64,000 bases of DNA, from assembly GCA_020637435.1 (NCBI GenBank), contig JACJVW010000001.1, positions 433,060-497,059 of the forward strand, given 5' to 3'. A program made the translations under genes and the position numbers. This document shows, in pieces, positions 6,883 to 62,000 of the stretch. The notes beneath the pieces were generated by a model. It was given only the letters and a program-made list of their open reading frames with translations, was not told where the DNA came from and searched no databases. The DNA comes from Candidatus Woesearchaeota archaeon (GTDB lineage: Archaea > Nanobdellota > Nanobdellia > Woesearchaeales > JACJVW01). Each line of letters opens with the position of its first letter. Positions within the stretch are counted from its first letter, which is position 1.

Positions 6883-7118
6883 CGTTCACCCCTGTCAGCA
6901 AAGTGAGCGAATGCACAATATGAAGATTATTATACAAGGAAGTTTGTTATGGACTTCGGTAAGAGCCAAGAAGTGTCCAACCACTGTATAATAATGGAGC
7001 ATTCGCGAGCTTTGCTGGTGATGTGCACGTAAAAGCACGTACATTCCGTAGAAAGTAACTTAAATATAAAGATATTGGTTTCGTATCACTCACGAGTAAG
7101 AATAAACTATCGAAAATA

Positions 7119-7826
7119 ATGGCAAGAAAAACCAAAGAGAAATGGAAGACCTACGGCAATGTATTCGATGAGTTCACGCTCCGCAATTTGTTCCAGCTAT
7201 CGTCTAGAGGGTTTTTCGAAGAGCTACAAAGCCCGATCAAGATTGGCAAGGAAGCCAACATCTTCACCGCTGTCACCAAAGACAGCACGACAGTCATCGT
7301 CAAGATCTACCGTCTCGAGACCTGCGACTTCAACCGCATGCTGGATTACATCAAGACTGACCAGCGCTACGTCAACATAAGAAGATCGCGAAGGAAAATT
7401 ATCTTTGCTTGGACGCAAAGGGAGTTTCGAAACATCATCAAAGCCCGGGAGGCAGGCGTCAAAGTCCCTACCCCTTACATCTTTAAGGACAATATCCTCG
7501 TCATGGAGCAGATAGGCAGTCCAAAACCAGCACCTCAACTAAAGGAAGCATATCCCGAAGAGCCAGAAGCGTTCTATCAGACGACTATCGACTACATGCG
7601 CATGATGTACCTGCACGGACTCATCCATGGTGACCTTTCACAATTCAACATCTTAAACGACAACGACAATCCGGTATTCATAGATTTCTCTCAAGGCCTT
7701 ACTACCGAAAGCCATGGATGGCAGGACTATCTTAGGCGTGACATCAAAAACGTCGCCAACTTCTTCAAAAAACTCGGCATCGACTCCGATCAGGATGACC
7801 TCTACACCCAGATTACCCATAAGTGA
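7119..7826 (+). CDS. rio1: RIO-type serine/threonine protein kinase (Rio1-like), 235 aa
   Basis: GKEANIFTAV matches the RIO ATP-binding loop. LIHGDLSQFNIL matches the catalytic loop and IDFSQGL the metal-binding loop. Confidence 0.8.
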   Translation: MARKTKEKWKTYGNVFDEFTLRNLFQLSSRGFFEELQSPIKIGKEANIFTAVTKDSTTVIVKIYRLETCDFNRMLDYIKTDQRYVNIRRSRRKIIFAWTQREFRNIIKAREAGVKVPTPYIFKDNILVMEQIGSPKPAPQLKEAYPEEPEAFYQTTIDYMRMMYLHGLIHGDLSQFNILNDNDNPVFIDFSQGLTTESHGWQDYLRRDIKNVANFFKKLGIDSDQDDLYTQITHK

Positions 7827-8239: not shown

Positions 8240-8465
8240 TGATTTTCAGAAATATATGTTAAAATTTAGAAGATCAATCAGAAATCAGAAATTTGGGCCC
8301 ATCAATGAAAAAGAATCTTCAGATTTACGAAAATACAATCTTAATTTCTAAAGAAATATCTGAGATTTATAGAAATAATCTGATTTTCAGAAATTTTAAC
8401 GATGATTCAGAATTTTGCGCAGATTACTCCTTAAATTCAGAGCAAAATTCTGAAATTCAGAAACA
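8240..8465. promoter_or_regulatory. Cluster of at least 5 exact TCAGAAAT octamers plus degenerate and inverted copies, upstream of the abrB-like and giant-gene operon
   Basis: TCAGAAAT occurs at 8246-8253, 8278-8285, 8285-8292 (tandem) and 8387-8394. Variants ttcagaatttt at 8406-8416, ttcagag from about 8447, inverted ttctgaa at 8449-8455 and ttcagaaac at 8456-8464 end at the ATG of the AbrB-like gene. Confidence 0.6.
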
Positions 8466-8755
8466 TGAAGAAGTATCCAAAAATAGTGCAATGTGACAAG
8501 CGAGGTCAGATAGTCATACCTAAAGACCTCCGAAATGAGCTCGGCATAGAAGAAGGCACTGGTTTTTGGATGTATGCAATCACCGATGAAGGTATTCTGC
8601 TCAAGAAGGTCGAAAACCCTGAGCTTGGGGAACACACCGACATGCTCCATGAGCTCAATGACAAAGCAGACAAGATAGATCTCTCACGTGAGAATCTTGG
8701 ACAGTCCATCGAGGAATACAAGAAGAAGAGGCAGGGCAACCTGGATGTAATATGA
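8465..8755 (+). CDS. AbrB/SpoVT/MazE-family swapped-hairpin DNA-binding protein (96 aa)
   Basis: KRGQIVIPKDLRNELGIEEGTGFWMY is the AbrB-type N-terminal beta-barrel motif, followed by an acidic C-terminal tail. Its stop overlaps the giant ORF start by 4 nt (ATGA at 8752-8755). Confidence 0.75.
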   Translation: MKKYPKIVQCDKRGQIVIPKDLRNELGIEEGTGFWMYAITDEGILLKKVENPELGEHTDMLHELNDKADKIDLSRENLGQSIEEYKKKRQGNLDVI

Positions 8756-20700: not shown

Positions 20701-23700
20701 GACCATCTGCTGCTGCAGATGTCAGCGGATTTCGCATTGTATGCTACCAAAGAAGAGAATGACTACATGCTCAGGCTAGGCGATTCCTCTACGTATACAG
20801 AAATGAATATTACTGGCTGGAATACTGATGACTGGCACTACCTGACTATAACTTATGCATCGACCATATCATGGCTCTATGTTGACGGAAATCTTATAGG
20901 AAGTTCATACAGCGATCCGAACAGTGTTACTACGTTGTATCTTGGTAAAGCCGCATCAGATTCCATCTACGCTAACGGAATATTCGACGATCTCATCTTC
21001 ATAGGAAAGACCTATAACGCGACACAGGTCCTACAGCTCAACACGAGCGGACCTGTGCTTTCATCTCCTAACATCAATTATACGATGAACTCCAGTAACG
21101 CAGTCATTTTCTATTCCTTCGACTACAACTGGTCCGGCAGTGAAGCCGCGTACATAACTGCAGATGATGGTTACGCTATTGCGGGAAGCAACGTCTTTGG
21201 ACTGACCGTCAATCCGCTCAATATAGCACCCGTCATAGCCCCTATTCCAAACCAGACTACTTGGGACAATCAGACGTGGTCCTATACGATAAACGCGACA
21301 GACGCAGACAACCATCCTCTCACCTACGTGGTAAATGCGAGCTGGATCGAGATCAACGAGAGCGGATACATGACATTCAATCAGTCACCTCTACTTAGAG
21401 GCCACTATGGTTTGAAGCTGACGGTCTGCGATAACCAGGATGAGATCAATAGCTGTGTCAATCAGACTTTTAATCTCACGATACTCTATACAGACATGGA
21501 CAGCGATGGAATCTCAGACACCTTTGATTTCATCACAGGCAATGAGACAGGAATAGTCACAAATATACCGATCACGATGATAATCGTGAACTCCAGCTAT
21601 TTCGACAATTCGACTAACACCACTTTCTTCCTTCCTGGTTCGACCAATATTAGCCAGTATTACGGAGGACTGGTGCACATTACTCTCAAGAACAGTAGCC
21701 ATGACTTTGTGGACTTTGATTTCATACTCAATGCAACATCCATCCTTGATCTCGGCAGCATAGTTATTGAAGTGAATAATGCGAACATGAGCGCGATAAG
21801 CGTAAGTGGCCTGATACTTCCAGTAAATATGACCAAGGCAGTACATCTGCAGAAGTATAACACTACCATCATGTCTGTATGCATCAAAGATAATGCGACC
21901 ACCAATATATCAGCAATATCAGTCAACTGCACCGCAGCCGATGAGATTCTCGTGCCTTGCGACAACCAGAACTATTCAGGTTACTTCTGCGAAGACAGGA
22001 ATACCACCTACAGAGTCTCTGGTCTCAACCATTCCGCAGTAAAAGAGCAGGCTGGCTGCACAGACAAAGACGGAGACGGCTACTTCTTTGGAAGTCTGTG
22101 CATAAGTTCGCCGTTGGATTGTCAGGATACTGATCAGAACAGATACCCTGGAGCTACTGATATCTGTGGAAACGGAATCGATGAAGATTGTTCAGGCGCT
22201 GACAAGAAGTGCTCAAGTAGCAGTTCAGGCGGAGGAGGGGGCGGAAGCCGGGGCGGAAGCTCAGGTTTCATCTCAAATAAGAAACAGTGCGAAGATGGCA
22301 AAGACAATGATGGAGACGGTCTTATCGACTTGCAGGACAACGGTTGCACAAAAGAGACAGATGACGATGAGAGCGACGAATGTGTCGAGAACTGGGTCTG
22401 TGGAAACTGGAATCTTTGTGTCGACGGAAAACAGACCAGATCCTGCTATGACACAAGTGAATGCAATACCTACTATGTCAGGCCGCACATGCTGCAGAGC
22501 TGTGAATACACGCCAAAAGTGATTGAGAAAGAGGTCACCTCATGTACTGATTATTCACAGAACTATGGAGAGACAGACGTAGACTGTGGCGGAGACTGCA
22601 AAGCATGCGGACTAGGCAAGAAATGCCTCTCAAATATTGACTGCGACTCTGGTTATTGTGATAGCCTGACCAAAATATGTTCAGAGCTGCTTACGGAACC
22701 TGTCCTGCCTACCTGTTCAGACATGATACAAAACCAAGGGGAAGAAGATGTTGATTGTGGTGGACCATGTGATTCCTGCAAGACTGAAAGTGCATTCTTC
22801 CAGTGGATACTCATGTTCGTCGTAGTGCTCGGTCTTCTCGGTATAGTCGCGGGAATCGCTCTGGCCGGACTGGAAAGCCGCCCAAGAAAAGAAGAACCCT
22901 TCACTGCTGAATCCCTCAAAGCGGCAGCTGAGGATACGGAAGGAAGGATATTCCTTGAATACTACAAAGGCACAGACAAAGAAAAGATCCTTCGCATAGG
23001 CAAAGCCCTTGGCATACCGAAGAAGAGAGTTGAAGACATACTGCACCTCTCCGAGTATGCCCTGCTCATGCTCAAAAGAGGTATAAGTAAAGATGTTATT
23101 GAGAGCAAACTGCTTTCAAGAGGCTGGCCAAAAGAACTCATCGAGCTCTTCTTCATCCACAACTTCATATTCAATGACCTTATGAAGAATAAGTCTATCA
23201 TCTACAAGAAGATAGAAGACAAACGTGCTGAAGGAAAGAGTGATGAGCTGATCGCCATCGAACTTAAAGAGGAAGGGTGGCCGGAAGACGTGGTCACCAT
23301 GGCTTTACTCTTTGAAGAGCATAAAGACACTCCAAAGGAACAGCCTGCGGAAGACCTGGTAGCGGATGAAATGAGCATCCTGCTGGAATTGCATAAGGGA
23401 GCTACACCGGCATCGATCAAATCGATGCTTGCTGAAAAGGGCTGGAAACCCGAAATCATCGACTCTCTTGCAAAACTTGAAGAATCCATAAGGTTGCCGC
23501 TCTCCCGCGGTACAGAACCGGATGAGATAATCAGACAGTTCACCTCCCAGGGTTGGCCTATGGAACTCATCGAGTTTGAGATACTCCTGCAGGATATCGA
23601 AATACGTGTACTTCATGCGATGAAGAACAATATTCCTGTTGAGCAGCTCATCCAGAGTCTGAAAAAAGAAGGTTATCCGGAGAATATGGTCAGGGAAGTC

Positions 23701-44052: not shown

Positions 44053-44676
44053 GTGAGAGGTGAATCTATTTTGAATAAAAAAGCAGAAATGGGTATAGGT
44101 ACCTTGATTATATTTATCGCATTACTTCTGGTAGCAGCAGTCGCCGCTGGCGTCCTTATACAGACAACAGGATCTATGCAGGAAAAAGCATTGACGACCG
44201 GTGATCAGGCCAAAGCGCAGATAGCTACCAACGCATTGACAATAGAAGTCTCCGCGACTGATGGACAATCCGGTGAACTAAGTTATTTCACCCAAATCAT
44301 GAAACTTGCGCCCGGTTCAGACGAGATCAAACTTGACCAGGCTATCCTGACCGTAAGTACATACACAAGATCAGCAACGCTAACCTATGCAGGAGCTGGT
44401 GCTTTGTTGGAGAGAAACACAAGTGACGGTTTCTACACAAATGGTACTGCAGGAAAAGGTAATTATTCTGTAGAATACCTGCAACAAGGCAACAACTGGA
44501 TTGAAGGCAACCTCCAAAGAGGAGATGTTATCAAGATATACTTCGAAGCCCCAGTCAATGTTAGTGAAGACGAAAAGGTAAGGATAAACTTCATTCCAAA
44601 AATCGGAACACCTACACTTACTGAGTTCATAACCCCAGAGGTTATCTCAACTGAAAGAGTGTATCTGTACCCGTAA
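44053..44676 (+). CDS. flaB: Archaellin (archaeal flagellin FlaB-like) with a class III (type IV pilin-like) signal peptide; alternative TTG start at 44071
   Basis: KAEMGIGTLIIFIALLLVAAVAAGVLIQT matches the archaellin N-terminal consensus ([26 protein letters not shown]). The track start at 44053 is GTG. The TTG at 44071 follows the RBS more closely. Confidence 0.8.
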   Translation: MRGESILNKKAEMGIGTLIIFIALLLVAAVAAGVLIQTTGSMQEKALTTGDQAKAQIATNALTIEVSATDGQSGELSYFTQIMKLAPGSDEIKLDQAILTVSTYTRSATLTYAGAGALLERNTSDGFYTNGTAGKGNYSVEYLQQGNNWIEGNLQRGDVIKIYFEAPVNVSEDEKVRINFIPKIGTPTLTEFITPEVISTERVYLYP

Positions 44677-44691
44677 AAAGAGGTGTAATAC

Positions 44692-44907
44692 ATGGCAACA
44701 AGGGTAAAATCTCACGTGCTTGAGAAGATTATTTCAGCCATGATGATTGTCTTTGGTATTTCAGCCATAGTCATTTTTGGAGTAAACTTCGGTAGTCCGA
44801 ACGTGAACCCTGGAGAACTGGCTATCATCGAGATACTGCTCATCATCGTGCTCGCAATTCTCGCACAGACCGTAATCCTCATCAGGATCTACGACAAACA
44901 GGCATAA
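44692..44907 (+). CDS. Small two-TM membrane protein (71 aa)
   Basis: Two hydrophobic helices (IISAMMIVFGISAIVIFGV and LAIIEILLIIVLAILAQTVILI). The ORF follows archaellin after 15 nt. Confidence 0.45.
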   Translation: MATRVKSHVLEKIISAMMIVFGISAIVIFGVNFGSPNVNPGELAIIEILLIIVLAILAQTVILIRIYDKQA

Positions 44908-44990
44908 GCCTTTATTTTTTCATATACTTCTTATTTGGTTCACTAGACTACACATCAAGAAGCGAACCCATCAACAGAATCATGTAGATG

Positions 44991-45002
44991 TAGGAATTCC
45001 GA
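44991..45002 (+). repeat. 12-nt direct repeat TAGGAATTCCGA, copy 2
   Basis: See copy 1 at 44016-44027. Confidence 0.6.
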
Positions 45003-45380
45003 CAATGTGCGGACCCACAAACACAACATAAAGACCACCAGTACAATTCAAGAACCACACCCTAATGACCTCCACCTTTCCAAAAAAGATATCTTTCTGT
45101 CAAAGGCATAGATCTATAGAATAATCAGAATTAAAGCGAGACGACAAAGTCCTATTGCCAGCTTGAACCGACCATTGATCTTGATTAAAAAAAGCATACA
45201 TTTGGGGTAATTAATAGTGCAAGGACACACTGATTTTAGTAAGCAATAGAGATACAATAGAAAAAGCTCCTTAAAGGTAATTTGTGCTGAAGAAATAATT
45301 TATGATGAGTACGTTCAGGCAATGAGATACTGAAGACATCTTATGTCAAAAAGAAGTAGAAAAAAAGGGTTTAAAAAAAT

Positions 45381-46100
45381 TTATTCAATAGCTAGGAAAA
45401 CCCAGTACTGCCTGACTCCGCCATTAGAGGTAGGAACCATGACCTGATAGTCGACGGTTTCACCATTGAAGGAAGTCTTTCCAGACTGATTGATGAACCC
45501 TACATACACAACTGCGCTTGCAGTATAGGTAAGTGCTGTGTCCCAGTCAGCCTGAGCGGATTCATTGTTAGTCTGTACAGCCCAGGTTGCGCCTGAAGCG
45601 ATTCCAGCTGCGTGACCTGTGAAGTTGATCACTGGGTGAGCAGGAGCTGCGGAGAAAGTCTCAGTGATATTATCACTTGCAGCGCCAAGTCCAAGCTGGT
45701 TGTTTTCCTGCTGTAGCTGTGCTACGTTGGAATCTAGACCGTCTAGTGTTGGCCATGCCACAGTCGACTCATTAGAGAAGAATATGTGACCGGTCACAGT
45801 ATTGTCTGGGCTCCAGGTATAAGCTGCATTTGATGATGCATCCTGAAGGACTAGATTTCCTGACACGCTTCCGTAGAAGATCTGCCAGTTGTCTGTCTGT
45901 AGCGGAGCAGTAGCGTTTAGGTAAGTAAAGTTACCGCCGCTTGCGTTCACTCCTGTAGCTGCTGTTGCACCGCCTGTATAAGTTTCACCTGGACCTATGG
46001 TCAGAGTAGCTCCGTCAGGTGTTCCGGGCGCAGCAAATACACTCATAGCTGCAACCAGAAGTGCGACGGCCACCAAAGTTAATTCTTTTGCAAATCTCAT
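45381..46100 (-). CDS. Secreted or cell-surface protein (about 240 aa) with a signal peptide and many N-glycosylation sequons
   Basis: From Met 46100: MRFAKELTLVAVALLVAAMSVFAAPG signal peptide, then a Thr/Gly/Asn-rich domain with 8 or more N-x-S/T sites. The 25 codons upstream in the track ORF are unlikely to be coding. Confidence 0.55.
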   Translation of the reverse strand: MRFAKELTLVAVALLVAAMSVFAAPGTPDGATLTIGPGETYTGGATAATGVNASGGNFTYLNATAPLQTDNWQIFYGSVSGNLVLQDASSNAAYTWSPDNTVTGHIFFSNESTVAWPTLDGLDSNVAQLQQENNQLGLGAASDNITETFSAAPAHPVINFTGHAAGIASGATWAVQTNNESAQADWDTALTYTASAVVYVGFINQSGKTSFNGETVDYQVMVPTSNGGVRQYWVFLAIE

Positions 46101-46189
46101 GATGTTACACCTCTTCATATACGATTTTATTAATATCACCATAAAGGTATTTAGTATCCTTTTATGTATACTCATATATAAATGTTTCC

Positions 46190-46440
46190 CATCCCCCCTC
46201 TTATTACCGGTTATACTAAATTTTTAGTAATTATAGTTAATTTCATGTGTTAATCATTATTTATTTACTTTTTTAGTAAATATAATACAATATAATTTTT
46301 TCTTCCTTTTATTTTATATTTATAGTATAATTAATTATAGAGAATTTCAAAACAATCTAGAAAACCAATAACATAACTTTATAAAGTAACAAATCAAAAT
46401 TTTCCATAGTTTATTTCATTTTTTTTAGTAATTTACGAAG
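46190..46440. promoter_or_regulatory. Extremely AT-rich ~250-bp intergenic region with 3 copies of TTTTTAGTAA, upstream of the recombinase-like gene and giant gene 2
   Basis: aaaTTTTTAGTAAtta, ctTTTTTAGTAAata and tttTTTTTAGTAAttta lie in a region estimated by eye at over 80% A+T. Confidence 0.5.
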
Positions 46441-46450
46441 AGCTGTACGG

Positions 46451-47008
46451 ATGGGAGAAATCAGCTACCTGGAAGAAGCTACAATAAAGAGAGTCATAAC
46501 TAGTGTCCAGAACTCCCGCGACCAGCTGATGATACTCCTTCTCTACGAACTTGGATGCAGCCTCAAGGAATTGCTCAACATCAGGCTCAGAGACATTGAT
46601 CTTGAAAAAGAACAGATTTCTATCACTTCCACATCCGGTACGAGCAGACAAGTCAGAGACAGCCTGATTAGCGCTCCCACAAAGGAACGTATAAGAAACT
46701 ATATAAACGCCAATAACCTTGAAAATCGTAAGACCGCATACCTGTTTACATCCTCCCACAACAGGCAGATGACCTTGCGAAGAGCGACCCAGATTCTCTC
46801 TTCTTCATTGGAATCACAGGGCTTAGGAGACCTTAGTCCGCAAGTGATAAAATATTCACATATTGTGAACGCCTACCGGAGAAATGTACCCATCAGTCTT
46901 ATAAGAGAACAGGTAGGTCTGACCAAAGAAAGACTCATTTCGATCCTATTGAGTATTGATGAGCCGAACGTCGGTTCGTACAAAGAGTTCCTGGAGGGGG
47001 TGCTCTGA
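46451..47008 (+). CDS. Tyrosine-recombinase (phage-integrase family) catalytic-domain-only protein, 185 aa, without a core-binding N-domain. The canonical C-terminal Tyr is not at the expected spacing
   Basis: Colinear with the XerC/D catalytic domain: RDQLMILLLYELGCSLKELLNIRLRDIDLEKEQISI (Arg-I region), KTAYLFTSSHNRQMTLRRATQIL, and LSPQVIKYSHIVNAYRR (HxxR region, with K in place of the first R). In LGHxxxxTTxxYTH the Tyr is replaced by LISILLSI. The stop overlaps the ATG of giant gene 2 by 1 nt. Confidence 0.55.
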   Translation: MGEISYLEEATIKRVITSVQNSRDQLMILLLYELGCSLKELLNIRLRDIDLEKEQISITSTSGTSRQVRDSLISAPTKERIRNYINANNLENRKTAYLFTSSHNRQMTLRRATQILSSSLESQGLGDLSPQVIKYSHIVNAYRRNVPISLIREQVGLTKERLISILLSIDEPNVGSYKEFLEGVL

Positions 47009-50000
47009 TGCGAAAAAGAGGTAACAATAAGACCCTCACGGTCATTTTGTTAGCTTTGCTTCTGACGATATTCACTATTTCTGCAGCTCCAAACATTGAC
47101 ATCAGGATCGACATGGCCACGGAGAACCGAAGCGTCGGCGATACTGTCCAGATAGGCATCTCCACCTACATCAATAATGTCATTGTACTTTCTTTGCCCG
47201 CCAAGGTATTCATCTCAGGCCCGGAAGGCTCATCCGAACTGGCGACCAGCGATACATTCAGAGGATTGCGCATAGGAAACTTCACTCCAACCCGTGCAGG
47301 AACATATACCATCACGGCCCAGGTCATCATCAATGGCCAACCGTATGAACAGTCAGACGAGGTCGAAGTGGCACAGCCACCTTATGCGTTCACCACAGAA
47401 TACCTGGTGAACGGTACTCTGCTACAGGCTCATATCACACAACCTGCAGACCGCACAGTAAGGATAAATCTGATCAGGGAATCGCAGATAATACCTTTAT
47501 GTGAAGCCGAGTGTGCCGCTGACTGCACATTTTCCTGCCCGCTCCCAGAACTAGACAGTGCCATCATACACCTGCAGACGCAGATTGACGCAGAACCGTA
47601 CCTCTACAGCACAACAGATATCGTAACTGCAGCTATGAAGAGTATCGAATGTGAATTCGTCGCCCCGAAATACGGACTCTACACAACAATACAACTCCCA
47701 CAAGAAGACCTTCTCGAAGCCTACATCACTGGCGACCGAACAGAGCAGATAACTGATGGAACGTTTACGACAGACGCACCCGGTGCATACACCCTAATGA
47801 TGCTGTATCTACAGGACAACACAACTGTTTCCTGCAGCAAGGACTTCACGGTCAGCGCTGACGGTGACGAAGCTCGTCTAAACTTGATCGATGACTATTT
47901 TGATCCTATCTACGCAAAGACCTATACCCTCTATAATATCGAAAAAGAAGGACATGCAAACATCTGCGATGAAGCATGGTATATTGATGATACAACGGTA
48001 CAGACCATCTCGTTTCCGGCCAACCTCTCCAGAGGTCAGCTCCTCTGCAAATCAGCTCCTGCCAATATGAGCAAGGCCGATGCTGAAACGTATGTAACCT
48101 TCCTTCGAAGCGGAGCCGCGACATTCTTCAACGTAGGCTTCAGCTCATTTGAATCGTACGCCTACATCCTCAAAGACTCAGTTGCGAAGGAGATACTTGG
48201 CCCCTACAACAAGACCATACATACGCAGAACTTCACCACCATAATCGGTCCGCCTGCTCTGTATGCGGTAGTGCACAAGAATATGGCAGAGTCGGAAACT
48301 GACTTAAGCGTGGGACCGGTACTGGTCATCCCAATGGAAGAGAATGCTTCCATAAGCTACATCAATGGCACTACCCTATTCATCCGGGAAAAGACAGCCC
48401 TGCAAAGAGAAGACATCTTCCAAAGCCAGGGAGTAAGATTTGTCCAAGAGTTGCAGCTAAAACCAAGGGAAGACACCATCACAGAGACAGACAAGCAGAT
48501 ACTCAGTGATGCGCAGACGATCGAACTCATCAGTCCAGAACTAAAGAAGATACATCTGCCCGCAGGCATCATACCCAAGGAGACTCCTCATGGCATGTAC
48601 ATGCTTCACGAGATCTTCTATGGCAACGCAAGCAGAGTAAGCAGGATAACTATCATAGGGACTGAAGCCAATCTGAGCATCAGCGAAGGCAAACAGAAGA
48701 ACGCGACAAAAGGCGATACAGTAAGATTCGTACATACGATCGTCAACTCGATAAGGGACGGTTCAGCCATCATTGAGGTGCAGATAGGAGACACTGCTGC
48801 GCAGGTAAGCGTAAACGTCATCGAAGGATCCATCGAAGTCCCCATCACTGATACGAACAACAACGGCATACCTGACTTAGGCATCATGTTGCCAGGAGAG
48901 GATAAAGAGATCCTGATTACAGCCATCGTCCCTAAGAATGCAAGCGCAGGAAATCACACTATCCCTATCACTGTGCAAGACCTGCAGCGAAGCATTGGAA
49001 ACACGGTCTATGATCTCATCCACGTAGAAGCTGACCTCTTCGAACCAGTCTACAGCAACGACCTTGACCTCTACGCTATCGAAGAGCATGAAGGACAATT
49101 GCAGATCCTTATTCAGAATAATTTCATGGATGAAAAAGAGGCTCAATTGACGTTGCACATAGGCAACAATAGCATTGTCGAGAATATAATCGTCCCAAAA
49201 GACAGCACATTCATGTTCACTTATCCTGTCGAGGATCTCTCCTCCAATGAGAAGATCGAAGCGGTGCTGACTGCATTTGGCGAATCGAACAAGAACAACA
49301 ACCAAAGAACATTCCTGCGTGCTCAGAGATGGACAGAAGACAGAAGTTATAGGAAGACATTGTACCTCACTGAGAAAGAGCATCAGGACCATGAACAGTA
49401 CAGATTCCGTGCATCTGCAGCTCGTGACGGCATGGATCTCTCATCCATCCGCCTTACCTACGCAACAGACACAACAGAAGGTATAGGTTATGCGTATCCA
49501 CTATTTTCTATCACCGCATACGATGAGAAGCAGGTCGACCTCATCATAGAGTTGAGTATGCTACCCAAGAACACGGTAGTTCCGTTATACATCTATTACG
49601 ATAAATCCGAAGCATCAATCCCCCCAAATACAAGCGCTCACCTGCCAGAGATCATCATCGACAACACCAATCGTACGGTGCAGATGAATGGGAGATGGGG
49701 TTCCGACTACGTCTCAAGAGAATACTATGGTTCAGGTTATCTTCATGATTTCGCAAGAGGCAAAGGAGAAAAATCTGTCATCTATGGCTTACAGGTACCT
49801 AAGTCCGACTATGAAGTCTACATGACGTATCCGACAGACCCTACGTTCTCAAAGCATGTACCTGTCTCAATAACAGGCACAGAGGGTACCCAGACTATCT
49901 ATATTGATCAAGACAGACGTCCACAGGATTGGACTTACCTTGGAGTATATGCCCTTGACAGCAACAGTCAGATTACTATCTCAAACGCAAAGACAGAAGG

Positions 50001-53000
50001 CCTCGTCGTAGCTGACGCATTCCGTCTTGTCCAAGTAGGGAGCTATGAACGATTCTCTGACGAAGAGAAATGGTTCATACCTGTACAAAAAAAGACCGAA
50101 TATATCTCTATCTTCGAAAACTCAACCCTCAAAATCAATACAACAGATATGACCAATATTACGGTGACCACCTCGATGCAGACAAACTACACCCTGGAGG
50201 AGAATAGCGTACTACTTGCTCCAATCTCAGATTTGACGGTGATGGTGCGAGGCAAAGTATGCAAAGTAAGTTGTTCATACAAAGAAAATACTTATGTCAT
50301 AGAAGTCATCAGGAAACAGTCACTTCTGCTCAAACCCTTCCCTTCGGTAAAGAAAGGCCAGGACGAGACAGAGGTACTCAATCTCTCTGCCTATCTGAGA
50401 CCCACAACACGCTTGCAGATAACAAATTCGACCATCAATGCATCCCTAAAAGAAAAAGTACTACACCTTGGACCCTCACCCGCCGGAGTCCATCGGATAA
50501 TTTTAATCGCGACAGATACCAATGTCACAGAACAGCTGCCGGCTTTGCTGGTGCAAGTCGCCCCTAAAGACACAGAGCAGACCATACAGGGCCACGCAGA
50601 GATAGGTCACCCGGTGCAATGGAAGAAGATAGTCATCAACGACACCACACAATTGCCTGTAGACGCAGCCAATATACGGGTAAACAACGGTAGCTCTTAC
50701 AGCTTTAGAGTGGACGAAAGGATCATAGATGCTCAGGAGATGGAGAAAGCAAAGGAAGATCGTGAGATTCTCAAAAAACTTAAAGCTTTCGAAGAGGAGA
50801 AACAGAACAGTAATTTCATAAGAGCGATGAGCATCAGCGTACAGAGTCTTGCTGCGCAGACACAAGTCCAGACAGACATAGACCTTACAAAAGTGCAGAA
50901 TACCACACTAGTGATGGAAGAGAATGCTACCTCATACATCATCGAATACACCACCCCCGCTCCAGACATTGCGATAAGGAGTGAAAGTGAAAAAGACTTC
51001 ACAAAGAAAAAAGATATTGTCGTCTTCAGTAATGTCACTTTCCACTACTACAATGTCACCTCCTACACTGATGTGGATGAATCCCTACCGGAACAGCTCC
51101 ACCTCTATTGGCATCGCCAGGAAGGTTCAGTCGATATCATCCATGACCCTCGATTGAAGGAACTTTTGGATGTGCAGCTCATCGACACAAATGCCAACGG
51201 ACTCATCGACAAAGTCCAGTGGCTCACCCCTCAACTTTCAGAACAGAATTTCTCGCTTGAGATAGACCTCACCATCCTCAATCTCCAGAGTTATCCGACC
51301 CTCTACAAGAATTGGACCGTCCTCTTCAACACTACTGGAACTGCCAACCTGACTATTTACACCCTCAACACCAGCTGGTCTGAATTCTACAACGACCTCT
51401 CCTCAACGCATGATGACCTCACCTTCCTCGATGTCAGATGTGGTGCCACCAGTAGATACGATGAGATCATCCTTCTGTTGGAGAATGGAAGTCAAAAATC
51501 TATTACAACAGTTGCTCCTACCGACCAGTTCGTAGTTGATGGCCTAAGAGTAGCTGATTGGAACTGCTCACAGACGGCAAGATGGGACAACCAGATTATC
51601 ACCACCGGTGTGCACATCCAGCGGTTTGAGTTCGGTAACGACATCCTGTATGCACGCAACTATGGTTTCCTTCTCTTTGAAACATTTGAATCCTATGCGA
51701 ACAACACAAATGCAACCGACTGGATAGACTATACTGACGACAGCCCGGTTACGCAGGGTGAGACCGCATTGACCTACGACAACGGCACGACGACCTCCAT
51801 AGTCATAGCCGCGGCCGCTGAAGAGTTCACAGAATACAACGGAACAGGAGCTCTGGCTTGGCATAGTTACGAAGTGAAAGGTGAACTTTGGATAGAGGGT
51901 AATACAAGTGGTAACTACGAGATCAATATCTATGCGTACAGCGATTTCAACGCGCCAGTTTCAAGAGACTATTATTCCCTGGAATTTATTCCATCCTACA
52001 CAGGAGGATTCAGGCTAAATGGCGACTCCAACACTTTCGTCATCAACAATCCAACCATCAACACCAGTGTCACCCCTCAATTTAACGTAACCTACTCTTT
52101 CAGATTCCTGGTCATGAACAATGGTGCGAACCGTGATCTTTACGCGATGATGTGGAAATCTAACGAGACAGAACCTTCATCATGGCAAGCACAGGCAAGA
52201 GATGTCCTGGCAGCAAACTCAGCGGGCACCATAGCATTCTCAGTCGCAAACGCCAAAGTGCACTTCGACAATATCATCGTGCAGAATGCGACCAGCATCC
52301 CGCAGATAACGATCATATCGCCACCTTACGGACCGCATGATGTCATAGACAATCTCTATTTCAACGTCAGCGTCGATAAGGACGCTGCAAACTGTAATGT
52401 CACTATCAATACGACATCCTACAATATGTCCCAGTGGAACACGACCCATTGGTATATGAACGTCACGCTCGGTGTCTATGGTACGCTTCCTGTTACCTTT
52501 TACTGTGAAGATGACTTTGGCAACAGCGGAAACAAATCGACTACCATCAGGCTCGGAACAAGTGCAATAACCATCCTTGCGCCGCTCAATGAGACGACAA
52601 CCGACTATACTCCATTGCTCAATGTCACCCTCAACGACACTTATGATGTATGGTACAGTCTTGACTATGGTGCGAACAGTTCCATAATACCTTCAGTGGA
52701 CAATTTCACCACCATCCTTGGCCCACTCAATCAGAGCCAGCACCTCATCTATGTTTACATTAATGACTCTGGTGTTATCGACTACACCTATGTGTACTTC
52801 TCCATAGATGTCCCGGTACCCAACGCCACCATGACGCTCTATGATGAAGGGATCAACCCCAGCGCCGCTGATGACCCTCTTGTAGACATTAAACTGCAAT
52901 CAATCTATGCGTACACCTACAGATATTCCTGCAACACAACAGCATGGACAGAATGGAGAACATGGACAGGTAATGGTTGTAGCGGTACCTGTGATTGGTA

Positions 53001-56000
53001 TGTCAATTTCAACCTCACCAACGCAAGCCTTGGCTGCAATGTGTCCGACGGTCCTAAATGGGTATACGCAGAGGTCCGTAACTACTTCAATGAGACAGGA
53101 TATGCCAATGACTCCATCAACATAGACCTAAGTCCGCCAAGGATAAACTTGACAACACCGCTGAATTATTCTCTTGCAACAACGCAAAAAGTAACCTTCG
53201 GTGTTAATGCATCAGACCACTACAGCAGCGTGCAGTACTGTCAGCTCTATGTTAATGGGTCTATCTGCGGAGGACTCATCTCCCCAATAGTAGATGATGT
53301 GATAAAAAATGTTACCAAGAACATCACGACCGACTGCAACTTTGTCGGAACAGGAGAGTATGTATGGAGAATGTACTGTAGGGATGACACCAACAGTCAC
53401 TGGTCAAACTACAGCGAGTACAGGACCTTGTTCGTGGATGTGGATGGCCCGGTCATCAACGCATCGTTAAGTACAAATAAGATAGGTTTCAATCAAAGCA
53501 TCCTCATCAACGCGACCATCACCGAACAATACAGCAATATCAGCAATGTCAGTGCTAATATCACCTATCCAAACGGAACTTCAAGACTATTTGCGATGAG
53601 CAATACTTCCTCCACAGATTATTACTACTACTTCACAGACACCTGGGGCGGAGGTTTATACCAGGTCCGCGTCCGCGCGAATGACACCGCCGGATGGAAA
53701 ACCACCTCGTCAGTGAAGCGATTCAATGTCAGCGTAAACGCATCAGTCTACATACGCACAGAACTCGGCATCTATGCACCGGGCATGCAGGTCAACCTGA
53801 CACAAAGGATGCCCGGTTGGATAGATGAGAATTGGTTATACCGATTACCCTTGGCAGTAACAGAAGAAAGCGGCACCGACCTGATACAGCACCAGATCAG
53901 GATAACATTGAACACTTCCGCGCTCATCACTGAAGGCAAAATGAATGCAGACTGTTCAGACATACGGTTCGGTACAGACAATGCATCATCCCTCTACTTC
54001 TGGCTGGAATCAGGATGTAACACCGACTACACCACTTATTGGGTGAAGATGGATGAGCTCGATGCGCTTGACACCAAAGCATTATACATGTACTATGGCA
54101 ATCCAACTGCGACGAACGCATCTAACGGTACAAGGGTATTCCAATGGTTCGATGACATGGAAACCTTCACCGGTTGGGTAGCAGAAGGCACAGGTAGCGT
54201 AGCCCAAAGCACGGCAAATGTCTACGAAAGGGCATACGCTCAGATTAAACAGACCAATTGCGATCCTGCAGGAGGTTCCAAGAATCTGGGTTTCACCCTC
54301 AACAGGACCAACTGGCTAGTGGAGTTCCATAGATACAGGGGTAGTGGTGACATCGCCTCATGTACAGTAGATAGGACTGGCGTTGAGACCGCAGCAGACA
54401 ACGGGTACAGCGGCGCCTTCCAGCACGGCGGTGGCTCGGACATATGGGTCGACCGAAGGACAGGCGGCGGTGCAACTGTTCTGGACAGTTCAAGCATCAT
54501 AGATATACTCGACACCTGGCATATTTCCCAGCTGCTGCTCACAGATGACGAGATAAGGCATGTCATTCTTGATACCAACTACACCATCGTGGAACAGACA
54601 CAGGCGATTGATACAACCTATACAACATTCGACCAGGTAGCTATCCGCGGTGGACGCCCATACTATATCGACATGATTAAGATTAGGAAATATGCAAGCG
54701 CAGAACCTACATTTACTATAGGAAGCGAACAGGGCGTCTTCGAAAACAGATCCCAGGTAAGTGGATCCGACAATTTCACCGCCTATTACTACCTCAGTGT
54801 CTATAATGAATCAGGAGGAAGCTTCCTCCTGGACAAGCACGTAGTAGAGTTCCTGGCAAACACGACTGAGCCGCTCCTGTTGCTTAACCCTATGTGGCTT
54901 GGTTACGGAGCATGGAATACCGGAGCATACTATGACGGCGTCTATCAGGCAAGAGCTACGCTTACCGACCCGAACAACAATACCCTTATCAACGAAGACG
55001 GAGAACTCCTTGAATCAAGATTCAACTTCACCATAGACAGGTATCCCGATATACTTGGCGCAGGCATCACTCCTACGTTCAACGGATGGGGAGAGTCCTT
55101 TACCTTGCAGGCAAATGTAACGTATCCGCTTCCTATAAATAGGGTCTGGGCCAACATCACCTGGGCTAACGGATCAGTACAGGTAGTCAATCTTCCTTTA
55201 GCAGAAGACATAACCTACGAAGCCACATTGACAGATATCTGGGATACCGGCCTGCACAGCATCCTCTTCGCATCAAACAATTCTGCAGGATATACTTCCA
55301 CTGAGGGTCCGTATGGATTCTCTATAAACGGCAACTCATCCATCACGCTTGCGACCGTCAAAGACCTGTACTACCCAAACAAAGTCATCGAGATTACTTC
55401 CCCCTACCAGTGGTGGAACACGTCATGGAGATACAGAGTCATCATCAACCTTGACCAAAAAGGCTATGACAGAGATGATATCTGGATGCGCCACAACATC
55501 AACATATCTGACATACTTGCTTCCTCGGGTGTAAGTGGAACACTCGATTACAATTCTCTTAGATTGGTCGAGTACACTGCCCAGGGTGGTGCAGCCACCT
55601 ACAATGGTACGCTGACCGATGATACGAAGTATCTCGTCCCCTTCGAAGTTGACCAACTCAAGGATTATGACAGTCTATACAACGCCAAGATCCATCTTGA
55701 ATGGATAGCGAACGGCACTACCGAATCTGCGATTTCCAGACAGTGGGCATTGTACTTCGAGATAGACGAGTCCAACACCGGTGTATTTTACAGTATTGAA
55801 CGACCGACTGAGTTCATAGGCTATCCTGGAACGACAAGTGAACACCTCTTCGCAGAAGTCTATGGTGATGGTACCTTTGGTGCTGAGACACTGATAGTGG
55901 ACCTCTTGGGTGATAACCAGATGTATGGAAGTGACCCTGTAGCAGATTTCGACAATGACGGAGATTTTGACATCCTTGTAGGTTACAGCGAAGATACAGG

Positions 56001-59000
56001 TCCCATTTTTGACTACCGTCTCTACGAGCAGATATTTGACAGTCCGCTTACCTTCATCAGCCAAGGTGTCATCTTCGACGGCCTAAACAATCAGTACTTT
56101 GAGGACTCGGTGACGGGTGACTGGAACGATGACGGATGGATGGATACTATCCTCGCTACAGACACTAACCGTCTATATGTCCTCCTCAATAACAAGACAG
56201 GCGGTTTCGAGCTTGGACCAGCCCTTTTTGGAGACCCCAACACCCGTGGCAAAGACGTGGGAGATTTCAACGAAGACGGATTGCAGGACTTCGCCTACAT
56301 GGAATCAGCAGGTATCCTCTATATTTACTTCTCAAATGGAGACGGAACATTCAGGATATACCAGGAAGGGTTCAGCAAATCTGCCCAGGCATGGTCCAAT
56401 TGCCTCGCCGTAGCTGACTTCGATAATGATGGTCATGATGACATAGTAGCAGGCGACAACAATGAGATATATTTCCTACAAGGTAATGGTCTGGGCAACT
56501 TCACAAGCCTGGGCAATGTGCTTAATATGGGGGCCACAAACTATGTTTCGTGCGACAATATTGATGCGGACAGAGACGGTAACCAGGACCTGGTCTTCTC
56601 CCTCTATGGTGAACAGCAACAAGACTACTACAAAGGTTACGGAAATGAGACTTTCACCTATTTCTCAACTTTCGGTAATCAGCAATCGATGGGTATAGAA
56701 GCCCCCGCATATCTTCCTACTGTAATATCACACTCGTCAAGAGCAGAAAAATATGCAAATTCCACAACACAGTCAAGGATCCTAAATACAGGAGCGGCCC
56801 CATTCAAAGGCTATCTCTTCACGCAGATAAGATTCTGGAATAGTTCAGATGTAGTCTGGGAACCTATCGCAACCATAATCAACGAATCAAATGCCTCTAC
56901 TGCAAGAGAGGTAGGCCGTGCATCTGCACTGAACATCAAAGATGCGTTCGACTCGTACAGTCGTTGGAATGTATCGAGTAATAAACTAGGTCAGTACCAA
57001 GTCGTCGTAGAATTCAGGCACCTTAATGGCAGCATTCATGTTATGGACGACGGAACTATGCTCAATATGACCTACAATTTCTCCGTAGAGCTTGATACCC
57101 TGGGACCCGACATACAGGAACTAAGGAAGAATCCATCTACAACGGGCTTTGGCCAGGAAGTTATCATTGAAGCCGTTCTTGAAGATGAAGGCAATGGAGT
57201 AGATAGTGCATGGATGAACATAACACGTCCGGACAATGTGTCTGCAATGTTCAACCTGACACAGATATCGACCAGCTTGTGGAGATACACCTACAATGAC
57301 ACCTGGATTTGGGGCAATTACAGCATCCAGTTCTACACCAACGACACTGGCGGTTACAATTCATCACTAAACTCATCCTTCTTTGTAAGAGGTTCAGTAC
57401 TCATGAACGCTACTACCGAGCAGCTTATCTACAATCCAAATCAGACGGTAAGGCTTACCAGCTCATTCAGCTGGTGGAACCAGACCTGGCACTACCGGGT
57501 ACCACTCATCATGGAATCAGCTGATTTCAACAGGTACAAATCGATCGTAGGTGGATACCTCAACTTTACGGAAAAACTTGCAGAATTGGATTGCGGCGCG
57601 ACCGCATGCTCAGGAGAGTTCATCAACAGCAGCTTGCGTGTCATAGAATATGGCACGGATGGTCAACCCATCATATATAACAGCAGCAAGACTGGGCAGG
57701 AAGCGTATACGATACCCTTCCTCTTTGACTATGAAGCCGGATACCAACGCATAACAAATGCATATGCAGACATCAGATTCAATGCTCCAGGCTTGACTGA
57801 CAGAGACGAAGAAAGGTACTTCATGATCTATTTCGATATCCTTGAGTTTGGCAGTAAGGCCATCTCCCAAAGGACAGATACGCTCATGCCCTCAGATGGA
57901 AGCATATTCTCCTTCATAGCGGTAAGTGATGATGATAATGATGTGTATGTCATAGAGAATTATCAGAATGGCACATGGGGTATCATCGATGACATAGGAG
58001 AGCCTTCAGGCACCAACAACCGCCGAGCCATCATCCAGGGAGATTTCGACAACGATGGTGATGAGGATATCATACTGGGAGTGCCGCAGAATGGTTTCGA
58101 AGTGTATTTCTACAATCATACGACTCCGGGAACCTTCGTAAATGAAGGGGTTATCGCAAACATAACTGATGGAAGCAGCGCAATCTCCATGGGTGGTGCA
58201 GTCGGTGACTTCAACGGCGACGGAAACCTGGACTTCGCCATGTCACCCAATGATATCTATTTTGATGTCTTCTTCGGCGACGGAAAAGCACAATTCATAC
58301 TTGACGCAACATACAATATCTGTGGAGCTAACGACGCCCGTGGGCAGGATGCAGCTGACGTGGATCTTGACGGTGACATAGACATAATTGCAGCTTGTAC
58401 GGGAAACCCTGATCTCTACATTTTGACCAACGATGGAACAGGAACATTCCTTGCTACCAGCCTTACCGTGACAAATGTGCTCAACGACCCTTACGGTCTT
58501 GCGGTTGCGGACTTCGACAACGACACCCTGCCAGACATAGTCGCATCCTACGGCGATACCGACACCATGTATTTTTACAAAGGTAACGGCGATGGAACAT
58601 TTAACAATGGCGGTGCGCTATCGATAACGACACAGGGTTCGTTCTATCCGGGGCTCGATGCATTCGATTTCGACAATGACGGCCTACAGGACCTTGTTGC
58701 TGCTGGCCGATTCCCAAACAATATCTACTACTTCAAAGGTGACGGCGATGGAACATTCACCTACATCAAGAGCATTGGCACAACAAGCGATGATACCTAT
58801 ACCGTGTCCGCGCCTATGGGTACAATCCCTTCATCCTTCAGAACATTGACTACAGAAGAGACGACCAACGTCACGACGCTCTCAAGTATCGTCAACGAGG
58901 GATCAACAGACCTCGGCGGATACCTCTGGGTAGGCATAGACTATCATAATGGCAGTGAATGGTCGCTCAATGACACCATCATTAATGACTTATCCATGTA

Positions 59001-62000
59001 CAATATGACGACCATAGCTCCAGGTGGACTACTTCTGATAAAAGACAGAGTGGAAAAAGCAGGCAATTGGTTCACAAACAGTAGCACCTATGGGTGGTAC
59101 AGATACAGGATCGAGCTCAGGGATATCTACGATAATCTCATCATCGGTGACAATGGTTCCGTTTGGTCAACCACAGCCCAGATCGCATTGAACACGACAG
59201 CGAACTTCTCGCTTGAACCCGATCTTGACGGACCGGATATCCTCTCCTTCGCTGTCAGTCCAAATACCACAGGTTATGGTGATACAGTCACCATTTCAGC
59301 ATTCCTAAGCGACCCCTCAGGTGTCAACAATGCGACAGTAAACTTGACATATCCCAATGGTACAGTGAAAACGCTGCAGCTCATAAATATTTCCAGCTAT
59401 CAGTGGCAGTATGTCTTTAATGATACCTGGAAACGTGGAACGCACAACTTCTCCCTAATCGCTGAAGATATCTACACCAATATCAATACTCAAAACACGA
59501 GCCTCGATATCCTCTCCAACCTTAGCATAGAGATTGCTACCTTGCAAGATACCTATCTGCCCGATCAGCTCGTTACGCTGACCAGTCCATTCTCGTGGTG
59601 GAACAGCACATGGACCTATCGTAAACAGGTTACTATGACTGCACAATCGTACCCTCGGCATAACGCTTACATTAAGCAGATCGTCAACCTGACCTATGAG
59701 CTTGAACAATTGGGCGTTACAGGAACCTTCGAGAACCAGAGCATACGGATAGTTGAATATAATGCCGTCACGGGTGAACCTAAGATATTCAACGGTTCAG
59801 CAAGTGAAAAGTACATAGTGCCGTACAAGCTTACTCTCAACAGCACGCACGATAGCATCAGTAATGCGGTGGTAGCCCTTGAATGGAATGCAAATGCGAC
59901 CACAGAAGCCAATCAGCAAAGAACATACTTCATCTACTATGACATACAGGAAAATTCTCAGAAGCCTGCAACAACATACCTAAGCACCGTCTACAACAGT
60001 CCATGCACAGAAGACTACGTCATCACCGGCGATGTGAACGGAGACCTTTACTATTTAAGATCCTACAGGAATGGGACCTTTGGTCCGCAATCATGGGTAG
60101 GCGATGATGACAGCAACAACTGGGGTATCGGAATCGCTGACTTCGACAACGATGGTGACTGTGACTTCGTCACCGGCGGCAATGATGGTTTCATTGACTA
60201 CTATGAAAAGACCGGTTCAGGAAATTCCTTCTCCGCTACAACGAACCTGCACTTTTTCAACGATGGGGGATACGGTATGGACATAGCCGTCGCTGACTAC
60301 GATAACGATGGTAACTATGACTTTGTAATCTCAGGCAACAACAATGTATTCACTGTTTTCCTTGGTGATGGGGACGGTACATTCACCTCATCTACCTTCA
60401 CAGGCTACGTCGAAGAAGGACGCGGTAAAGATGCCGGTGACATGAACAGAGACGGGTTCATGGACTTTGTCGCAGGCTATGACCTCGGTATGATTTTTGT
60501 CTACTACGGCAATGGAGACGGCACCTTCAATGAATCGGACATCAACTGGGACATAGGTAATACGGCATACGGAATCTCGGTAGCTGACCTTGACAAAGAT
60601 GGCAATCTTGATATCTGTGCTGCACAGAGCAACGGACAGATAAGATGCAGGTTCGGTGATGGTCAGGGTAACTTTGGAAATGAGATCATCACCGGCGCAG
60701 ATCCCGGAGACTACGCTCCGATGGATGCATGGGACATCAACCTTGACGGCTACATCGATATAGTTGCAAATTTCTATAGTAGTGAACAAGTCTTCGTCTA
60801 CTTCGGCAACGGAACAGGCTATCTTACCGCATCGGCATACAACCCGGTAGGTACAGCCATCGGCACGAACAGGATGGGTATCGCTGGCCCACTCATCAAA
60901 GACCCTGAATCTACAGTAACGTACCAAAGCGAGCTCAATGCAGAGAGTCCACTAAAGTCACGAGTACTCAATACTGGTTCCACATCATCAGGTTCATACA
61001 CTTTCATCACCATAGAATACTTCAACACTACAACCGGAACGTGGAACCACACGGCACACATAGTCAATGATCTTCAGAGCTACAGCATGAATAACCCTCT
61101 CGGCATCGGCGGATTGCTAAATTTGCAGGCAGAGTTCGCGACAGCTGGAGCCTGGAATACTTCTAGTTATACCAATGGTACATATCGCGTCCATGCTGAG
61201 CTTCGAAACTTGTACAATGAGACCCTCCATAACGACGATGGTTCAGCTGTCAATATAACCTACAACTTTACGCTTAAATATGACACAGACCCACCTGCAG
61301 TAGAATATCTAAACATCAATCCAGCAGAGACTGGATTCGGAAGCGACGTCATCGTGACCATAGACCTTGATGACGAAACAGGTGTCCACAATGTCTCTGC
61401 GAACATCACGTATCCAAACGGCACTCAATTCAGAGGGGATTTCGCTAAAAGGACGACAAAAAGATGGTCTTTCACCGCATCAGACCATTGGATTGTAGGC
61501 ACCTACAATGTCAGCATAAATTATAATGATACGCTTGGCTTTGCCAATCAGACCAACACCAGTTATCTCATCAATACGAGTATCAATCTGACCATCGCTA
61601 CAGAGCGCAACACGTACTTCGGAAATGAATCAGTTACATTGACCAGTCCATTTGTGTGGTGGAATACGTCCTGGAACTACAGGAACACCTTTACGGTCGA
61701 TCCAAGCCCTGCAGTCAGGCATGATGTCTATGTGCAGAAAATGTTCAACTTTACCGACCTGCTTACCCAGCTTGGCGGCAACGGTATCTTCGACCTAAAT
61801 TCCATACGCATAGTCCAGTACAACAGCGATGGCACGCCCAAAGTATTCAACGCATCCAGAAGCGGCGATGACAGATATAACATACCAGTCTCGTTTGCAC
61901 AGGCTTCCGGGTTCCACACCCAGACCAATGCGTATGGCAAGGTTGAGTTCATAATCAATGGTACGCTGACAGCGAACACGCAAAAGACCTATGCGATCTA

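Follow-up and report, generated by a model that had tools for sequence, protein, structure and literature searches.

Within a 64,000-nucleotide (nt) stretch of the genome of a Candidatus Woesearchaeota archaeon (contig JACJVW010000001.1; the whole stretch is hereafter called the window), a small gene sits directly upstream of a giant secreted-protein gene, giant gene 2. The small gene encodes a homologue of the tyrosine recombinases that, as judged from its sequence, is with near certainty both catalytically dead and conserved. We propose that the protein is a domesticated recombinase, which would bind operator DNA and regulate the giant-gene operon. We regard this as probable, with some reserve. 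The case is built on the fold of the protein, the loss of its catalytic residues, its conservation, its linkage to giant genes and, in relatives, a DNA motif enriched upstream of the family genes.

The window protein and its active site

The original prediction described a likely degenerate tyrosine recombinase, comprising the catalytic domain only, and proposed a comparison with family PF00589 by hidden Markov model. In a Pfam scan, PF00589 matched residues 7–156 of the window protein (E=1.1e-13). The score of 51.8 bits exceeded the gathering threshold of 27.1. The match to Pyrococcus abyssi XerA was confined to XerA chain residues 105–254, which form the catalytic domain; the window protein begins at XerA position ~105. 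The top NCBIfam model was that of archaeal XerA (NF040815; 79.6 bits against a cutoff of 220, model positions 94–243 of 263). An AlphaFold (AF2) model, built on 41 family members, had a predicted local distance difference test (pLDDT) score of 94.4. The best Foldseek matches of this model were the catalytic domains of XerA, XerH, Cre and IntI (TMq 0.72–0.78, probability 1.00). XerA was the best solved relative by sequence and by fold (TMq 0.78; P. abyssi 4A8E and Thermoplasma acidophilum 5HXY).

The stop-to-stop frame of the gene opens at 46385, which is 66 nt before the ATG, and the DNA upstream is non-coding, with 21% G+C (GC). Since the frame is closed upstream, and the DNA there is non-coding, no core-binding (CB) domain can be encoded and the start has not been mis-called. 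The catalytic-domain-only architecture, with no N-terminal CB domain, is thus upheld. The gene and its junction with giant gene 2 are laid out as follows.

46451..47008, plus strand: recombinase-like gene, ATG start, 185 amino acids (aa)
46993..47002, plus strand: Shine-Dalgarno-like GGAGGGGGTG, 5 nt before the giant-gene ATG and within the 3' end of the small gene; putative function
47006..47010, plus strand: TGATG junction; the TGA stop (47006–47008) has one base in common with the ATG (47008–47010) of giant gene 2
47008..64000, plus strand: giant gene 2, 5' 17 kilobases (kb); runs off the window, with more than 5,664 codons open to the window end

The coordinates of the open reading frames (ORFs) confirm the 1-nt overlap by which the two genes had been said to be coupled. 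The Shine-Dalgarno-like sequence was not kept in the orthologous loci L005 and L006 (L and P numbers are our designations for loci and proteins). From the start at 47008, giant gene 2 encodes ~9,370 aa, making it a ~28-kb gene. A public contig with an identical small protein has it annotated at 9,335 aa, starting farther downstream, from the ATG at 47113. The start at 47008 is likelier because orthologues conserve a basic-then-hydrophobic signal peptide that the call from 47113 loses. The giant protein has a signal peptide, Golvesin_C, DUF2341 and Big_13 domains, and many FG-GAP_3 repeats.

We placed the catalytic positions using XerA alignments and a family alignment anchored on canonical short relatives. 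The equivalents in the window protein are listed below.

Arg-I (XerA R135): S37
Lys-beta (hairpin): falls in S62–S65
His-II: Q131
Arg-II: K134
His after Arg-II: Y135
His-III: L157
Tyr nucleophile: L166

None of the six catalytic positions retains its canonical residue. Hence, the window protein is a homologue of the tyrosine recombinases rather than an enzyme of that class, and should be unable to cut or rejoin DNA. The degeneracy is more complete than had been claimed, and nothing is left of an intact RKHRH-Y hexad. Arg-I, thought to be retained, is S37; the segment KYSHI...YRR, taken to be HxxR-like, is not the equivalent, which is Q131-V-I-K134. The remark that no tyrosine stands at the canonical place, the nearest being ~20 residues on, was correct. 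That position is L166, and the next tyrosine, Y177, lies 21 residues after G156.

The family and its linkage to giant secreted-protein genes

A word-indexed protein search returned just the window protein and one homologue, so an exhaustive profile search was needed. This returned 2,950 cluster representatives at E<=1e-3, of which 157 reached E<=1e-10. Sorted by alignment, 86 short proteins (<=235 aa) fell into two kinds, one with the full R-K-H-R-H-Y set and a larger, dead group. The dead group has the signature ETGC[TS]xxEL ... PQxxRY[ST]H ... QxG[LI]xxxRxxQ[IL]. Here, Arg-I, His-II, His-III and the tyrosine are gone, the nucleophile column varies (L/I/F/S/C/V/A/Y) and Arg-II is retained in most members. 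In a neighbour-joining tree the dead proteins form one clade, apart from the short canonical R-H-R-H-Y proteins. Nested within the dead clade is the S/T-Q-K-L-L subclade of the window protein, in which Arg-II is additionally replaced by Lys.

Among 41 dead members, C36, R111, Q114 and G156 are invariant, and R23, R69, Y135, H137, R161 and Y177 nearly so. The window protein is 24–49% identical to its dead-clade relatives, which are spread over many genomes. Far from being absent in relatives, the ORF thus belongs to a conserved clade of short dead homologues. The loss of the catalytic positions, together with the conservation of other residues, is the pattern expected under selection for a function other than catalysis. 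Those members with a named source are from genome bins of Woesearchaeota and Nanobdellota. Databases label them 'site-specific integrase' or XerD, and the identical protein at NCBI, on a 782-kb contig, is labelled 'site-specific integrase [Candidatus Woesearchaeota archaeon]'.

The label, together with the short length and missing catalytic residues, is what would be expected of a decaying integrase, left by a mobile element that once inserted beside the giant gene. However, the ORF is unbroken, and the motifs outside the catalytic positions have been preserved, at the identities given above. The setting is one of core genes, with UPF0182, a PAN-type AAA ATPase and an archaellin-like protein as syntenic neighbours. 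A transfer RNA (tRNA) scan found no tRNA in the 64-kb window, and there were no att features; hence, there is no integration-site signature. No compositional island was seen in the window beyond the AT-rich promoter region, and a paralogue search found neither a second family copy nor an active recombinase within the window. Conservation and core-genome synteny exclude a mobile-element remnant, to which we leave next to no probability. The same observations speak against the suggestion that the gene is a remnant of an invertase or shufflon switch, for which the locus offers just a weak 11/13 inverted repeat, described below.

The conserved residues raise the question of a rewired enzyme (a recombinase, nickase or topoisomerase-like protein) using Y135 or Y177 with R69, R111 and R161. 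All five residues are invariant or nearly so, and most of the clade keeps Arg-II. Conversely, Arg-I, His-II, His-III and the helix-M tyrosine have been lost jointly, the nucleophile column is free to vary, and Arg-II is itself replaced in the window subclade. Moreover, Y177 sits in a terminal helix that follows a lower-confidence linker in the AF2 model. In Cre and Xer enzymes the terminal-helix region mediates protomer contacts. We know of no precedent for such rewiring of an active site, which also counts against it, and we judge a rewired enzyme very unlikely.

Some family members, 290–390 aa long, carry two dead recombinase-like domains in tandem (P0021–P0023, P0027, P0029, P0030 and P0032; for example L010 721–1890 and L024 353–1366). 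Their genes are likewise followed by overlapping large secreted-protein genes. The two-domain proteins are possibly covalent pseudo-dimers that match two-armed sites. By comparison, the canonical short relative P0043 is encoded on a contig with ParA, Rep (Rep_O) and Fic genes, a plasmid-like setting. Separately, chain 14 of PDB entry 9i5v, a Porphyromonas gingivalis ribosome, was deposited as 'ribosome-associated translation inhibitor RaiA'. Residues 132–272 of this 401-aa chain match the tyrosine-recombinase catalytic profile (E=4e-12). The chain is apparently either a Xer-type sequence labelled as RaiA or a fusion.

We found no description of the dead family, or of its link to giant genes, in the literature searched, including a 2021 review of archaeal tyrosine recombinases. 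An inactivated recombinase acting as a DNA-binding regulator is a known kind of protein. New here are the architecture consisting of the catalytic (CAT) domain only, the DPANN lineage, a candidate operator that retains a core-site-like form and the fixed association with giant genes.

Searches for related loci with two alignments added to the set. That of the subclade gave 2 genome loci, and none in metagenomes; that of the ETGCT clade gave 14. Of 25 sampled loci, ~20 have a gene for a large or giant secreted protein downstream of the dead gene, at a distance of −14 to +68 nt. The downstream gene has the same orientation and encodes a large or giant protein with a signal peptide in the window, L001, L002, L005–L010, the P0007 contig, L014, L017–L019, L021 and L023–L025. 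The orthologues, at 46–49% identity, are in L001, L002 and the GTDB genomes L005 and L006, with junctions of +3, −4, −8 and −4 nt. The window layout (divergent secreted-protein gene, AT-rich spacer, dead gene, giant-2 homologue) recurs in L001, L005 and L006. At L002, a giant-2-like gene overlaps the dead gene, and the upstream DNA is too short to show the divergent gene. The product encoded downstream in L020 has no signal peptide. Further junctions are given below.

P0009: 68-nt gap; downstream protein of 6,851 aa with Golvesin_C
P0014: 4-nt overlap; downstream protein of at least 2,619 aa, 34% identical to giant 2 residues 1186–2380
P0007, P0018, P0021 (tandem) and P0048: tight junction; large signal-peptide proteins downstream
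L017, L018, L019, L021, L023, L024 and L025: −13 to +19 nt; signal-peptide or transmembrane proteins downstream, up to at least 1,999 aa

The seven loci on the last line are 7/9 of the further metagenome loci with a readable 3' end.

A parallel between this arrangement and that of giant gene 1, elsewhere in the window, had been pointed out, and is real. The relevant feature is as follows.

8465..8755, plus strand: gene for a 96-aa AbrB/MazE-fold protein (PF04014, E=2.6e-7)

This gene overlaps giant gene 1 (8752–23988, 5,078 aa) by 4 nt (ATGA). As a side observation, the N-terminus of giant 1 (residues 3–222) is homologous to an internal part of giant 2 (1187–1419) and to giant-2 orthologues. 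At L003, a 328-aa helix-turn-helix (HTH) protein (2738–3724, with Sigma70_r4/HTH_23-type repeats) heads the giant-2 orthologue (3705–7472) with a 20-nt overlap, and the dead gene P0004 lies 1.6 kb upstream. This looks like non-orthologous displacement in the regulator slot. Taken together, the recombinase-like, HTH and AbrB heads place three unrelated DNA-binding folds in the same slot before homologous giant genes.

The small protein might have no role at DNA. It could instead be a dedicated partner that, for example, chaperones the giant protein in the cytoplasm or targets it for secretion, or one that binds RNA and aids translation of the 28-kb message, with coupling setting the stoichiometry. 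The overlapping or near-overlapping stop and start codons, conserved across the family, and the linkage to a single class of product, large secreted proteins, would fit such a role. However, it leaves unexplained both the conserved gene-proximal palindromes described below and the replacement of the small protein by HTH and AbrB-fold proteins at homologous giant genes. Furthermore, the giant proteins diverge fast (25–34% identity), while the small protein keeps basic residues that, by alignment with XerA, would be typical of the DNA-facing side. We consider such a partner unlikely.

Upstream sites in relatives and in the window

Upstream of the family genes we found ~23 copies of an asymmetric site of ~30 nt, on at least 10 independent contigs. 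The site consists of a strong arm, AAAAGGGAAACT, a 6–7-nt spacer and a weaker inverted arm (ttTCCcttt). A strong arm, a spacer and a weak inverted arm is the layout of Xer/dif-type core sites. At L008, three such sites lie upstream of the gene, in the form GTTTCC...-N6-7-...AAAAGGGAAAC, and L009 and L010 have the same kind of site upstream. The 10-mer AAAGGGAAAC occurs three times in L008 and four times in L009. Each copy lies no more than 300 nt upstream of the gene, and the remainder of the ~20 kb has none. The genes for P0014 and P0018, proteins that are 45% identical, have an identical 12-nt arm. Promoter-proximal copies of the site adjoin TTTTAAA[AT], a TATA-like box. The 7-mer core, GGGAAAC, is present upstream in 12/21 loci. 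Its density is 2.69/kb in 400-nt upstream windows compared with 0.074/kb in the remaining 162 kb, a 36-fold enrichment.

Arrays of direct ~30-nt AAAAGGGAAACT sites are seen at L020 (1026–1258, with another copy near 800) and L029 (2324–2406, also 371 and 653). Each array has four or more copies, spaced 74–76 nt apart within longer tandem repeats. Such regular spacing would suit cooperative binding or wrapping.

The canonical relative P0043 has a perfect palindrome, GTTTCGCATT-N9-AATGCGAAAC, 124 nt upstream of its gene (L011 1658–1686, identical to L012 709–737). The ancestral active form may have used this palindrome as a recombination (resolution) site. The sites of the tandem dead protein in L010 have the same GTTTCGCAT arm as the P0043 palindrome. 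This common arm ties the operator-like sites to an ancestral recombination site.

The corresponding region of the window is AT-rich and lies between the small gene and a divergent gene. Its features are as follows.

45381..46100, minus strand: divergent secreted-protein gene, ~240 aa, without a Pfam family; syntenic in L001, L005 and L006
46101..46450, no strand: AT-rich divergent control region, ~21% GC over 46176–46460
46158..46189, minus strand: promoter-like element CCTTTTATGTATACTCATATATAAATGTTTCC of the divergent gene, putative archaeal TATA box
46182..46194, no strand: left inverted-repeat arm ATGTTTCCCATCC, part of an imperfect 13-nt repeat bracketing the intergenic region
46184..46190, minus strand: family core GGGAAAC (GTTTCCC on the plus strand), a motif defined independently in other loci
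46221–46232, 46270–46281 and 46422–46433, plus strand: three copies of TTTTTAGTAAWT, all in the intergenic region
46378..46385, plus strand: candidate operon promoter (small gene plus giant gene), a TATA-like box TTTATAAA lying 66 nt ahead of the ATG
46449..46461, no strand: right inverted-repeat arm GGATGGGAGAAAT, over the start codon of the recombinase-like gene

The longest ORF of the divergent gene (45381–46175) has 264 aa, compared with 253 aa in the public call, and in either case the start precedes the conserved promoter-like element. Homology to L001, where the protein is 40% identical, places the true start at the methionine at 46100 (MRFAKEL..., ~239 aa). Compared by eye, the promoter-like element is partly conserved in L001, L005 and L006. 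The core GGGAAAC occurs once per strand in the 64 kb, and one of these copies is in the control region. On the minus strand this copy reads GGATGGGAAACATTTATATATGAG, which places it immediately ahead of the divergent gene's TATA-like box. TATA-like boxes similar to that of the operon are found upstream in L001, L002, L005 and L006.

Other repeats in the intergenic region were noted. Three copies of TTTTTAGTAAWT were found compared with 0.52 expected window-wide, a statistic that the local AT-richness weakens. Similarly, ATAGnnnATTTCA occurs three times (46233, 46337 and 46406), in an AT-rich context that weakens the statistics. The hexamer ATTTCA, chosen post hoc, is enriched upstream in the window, L001 and L009. 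A scan for bacterial promoters and terminators gave chance-level, uninformative results, the promoter type being wrong for an archaeon. An Rfam search of 44500–47500 gave just a sub-threshold match to sR42, a C/D-box small RNA (44823–44886, minus strand; 18.1 bits against 38, E=0.32). This match is inside a small ORF and is probably due to chance.

The original prediction proposed a search of the flanks for inverted repeats that could be recombination sites. An imperfect repeat does bracket the intergenic region, with 11/13 positions complementary and 254 nt between the arms. It is weak, and no conserved equivalent was found in the orthologous loci L001, L005 or L006. Just 2% of composition-preserving block shuffles attain it, albeit with thresholds set post hoc. 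The inverted repeats of L005 and L006 were dismissed as recombination sites because they largely coincide with the TATA-like boxes of two divergent promoters.

These repeats bear on another possibility, that the protein takes part, in a non-catalytic or architectural capacity, in inversion of the giant-gene promoter, and hence in phase variation. A separate recombinase, such as XerA, would cut, and the dead protein would bind one arm per site to steer or prevent the reaction. The sites, with arms of unequal strength, do resemble recombinase core sites. Immediately ahead of the L008 gene, 239 nt are enclosed by a perfect 15-nt inverted repeat, and two complete sites have opposite orientations; in the window, the 11/13 repeat brackets 254 nt of the control region. 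The FimB/FimE-type invertases are also ~200 aa long, and give a weak NCBIfam match. On the other hand, a second orientation was not seen in any contig. The window repeat is weak and lacks conserved equivalents, and the L020 and L029 sites are direct tandem copies ~75 nt apart rather than inverted pairs. Since no member of the clade has kept the nucleophile or Arg-I, the reaction would need another enzyme, and the window has no active recombinase. We regard a part in inversion as distinctly improbable.

Known systems and a proposed mechanism

Archaeal XerA is the closest relative by sequence and fold, with ~150–170 residues aligned, and both proteins are archaeal. Unlike XerA, the window protein has no CB domain, has all its catalytic residues replaced and scores far below the NF040815 cutoff. 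Its gene is in a giant-gene operon, not at a dif-type housekeeping locus.

FimB and FimE (NF007371/NF007370) consist of little more than a catalytic domain (~200 aa); their substrates are short inverted repeats on either side of a promoter that adjoins surface-structure genes. Those invertases are active, with a full set of residues, whereas the window protein has lost its active site and scores 25.6 bits against a cutoff of 222 (NF007371). Inverted-repeat searches found no convincing invertible element at the window locus.

The short canonical recombinases (P0043, P0080-82 and P0101) share with the dead clade the CB-less length (180–230 aa) and the context of the 'TGC' motif, and have a GTTTC...GAAAC palindrome beside the gene. 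In contrast to the dead clade, they keep R-K-H-R-H-Y, lie among ParA/Rep/Fic plasmid-type genes and have no giant-gene link.

The functional shift that we propose has a precedent in MrpR (YopR) of the Bacillus subtilis prophage SPbeta. This protein has a tyrosine-recombinase fold and no recombinase activity, and is a sequence-specific DNA-binding repressor acting on a repeated element (PMC10516654). Its structure is PDB 8A0A and its catalytic-like domain is PF22823. MrpR keeps CB and CAT domains and is bacterial and phage-encoded; conversely, the window protein has the CAT domain only and is archaeal. The family profile gave no match to 8A0A at E<=1. PF22823 was not matched by the window protein in hmmscan at E<=10, and appeared just as a weak precomputed match. 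The two thus appear to have been inactivated independently, which makes MrpR an analogue rather than a family member.

Of the two possibilities raised by the original prediction, we favour a recombinase domesticated as a regulator, on the strength of the dead clade, the giant-gene operon, the palindromes in relatives and the MrpR precedent, but it is still an inference. The steps would be as follows. The dead clade would descend from short CB-less recombinases that recognised a GTTTC...GAAAC core site beside their own gene, and its members would keep only the catalytic-domain fold. Sequence-specific DNA binding has most likely been kept by the dead proteins, which would act as dimers, the tandem two-domain forms being pseudo-dimers. 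Their nearly invariant C-terminal YxxFF helix (Y177) may dock protomers, as helix N does in Cre/Xer. The helix with R111 and Q114 is presumably equivalent to the specificity helix of Cre. The predicted targets are the core-site-like palindromes in the upstream region of each gene, which overlap or adjoin promoter elements. The outcome would be transcriptional control of the operon that the small gene heads, with its translationally coupled giant secreted-protein gene. The position of sites over or beside TATA-like boxes and start regions favours autorepression, and thus negative feedback on a costly ~28-kb gene, although the sign of regulation is predicted from position. In the window, the divergent secreted-protein gene is probably also controlled, since its TATA-like box adjoins the sole GGGAAAC core of the control region.

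Several points weigh against a regulator of this kind. For the window protein, we infer DNA binding, an operator of its own and the regulatory outcome from sequence comparison. The single window core adjoins the divergent gene and not the promoter of the operon itself. The nearest relatives, L001, L005, L006 and L007, have no GGGAAAC 7-mer upstream. Neither a palindrome scan against shuffles, a search for shared 9-mers nor a start-anchored comparison by eye found a shared operator for the window subclade. Hence, the cis evidence is strong for the family and suggestive for the window locus. Because Arg-II is Lys in this subclade, its members may differ in specificity or even in activity. Co-production, as implied by translational coupling, is equally expected of an assembly or secretion partner. 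The sampled loci are whatever the searches returned, and so not a random set, and the linkage has exceptions. P0004 (L003) sits right after, not before, a big secreted-protein gene, P0035 has a gene for a small CxxCxxCC protein downstream, and L022 has no downstream ORF.

A broader form of the regulator proposal is more tentative, and we hold it as a possibility that we would not yet back. A plasmid-type, CB-less recombinase and its GTTTC...GAAAC site may have been domesticated together, as a repressor and operator pair, and have radiated in DPANN archaea as a module dedicated to the control of giant surface-protein operons. Such a module might act by synapse-like DNA looping between distant sites, giving on/off heterogeneity without rearrangement.

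There is a systematic annotation error to be noted, as members labelled 'site-specific integrase/XerD' could be misread as signs of mobile elements. DPANN genomes are tiny, and giant surface proteins occupy several per cent of them; these proteins are prime candidates for host attachment. To our knowledge, nothing is known of how their genes are controlled. The family described here provides a candidate control module for giant genes in many uncultured lineages, in which a small protein, encoded at a fixed place in the operon, would be paired with a defined DNA site of ~30 nt. It would extend the single well-studied case of a recombinase-fold repressor, MrpR, to a large and independent archaeal radiation, in which the candidate operator still resembles the ancestral recombination site. 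Since active short relatives with a similar site still exist, the conversion of an enzyme to a regulator may be traceable step by step.

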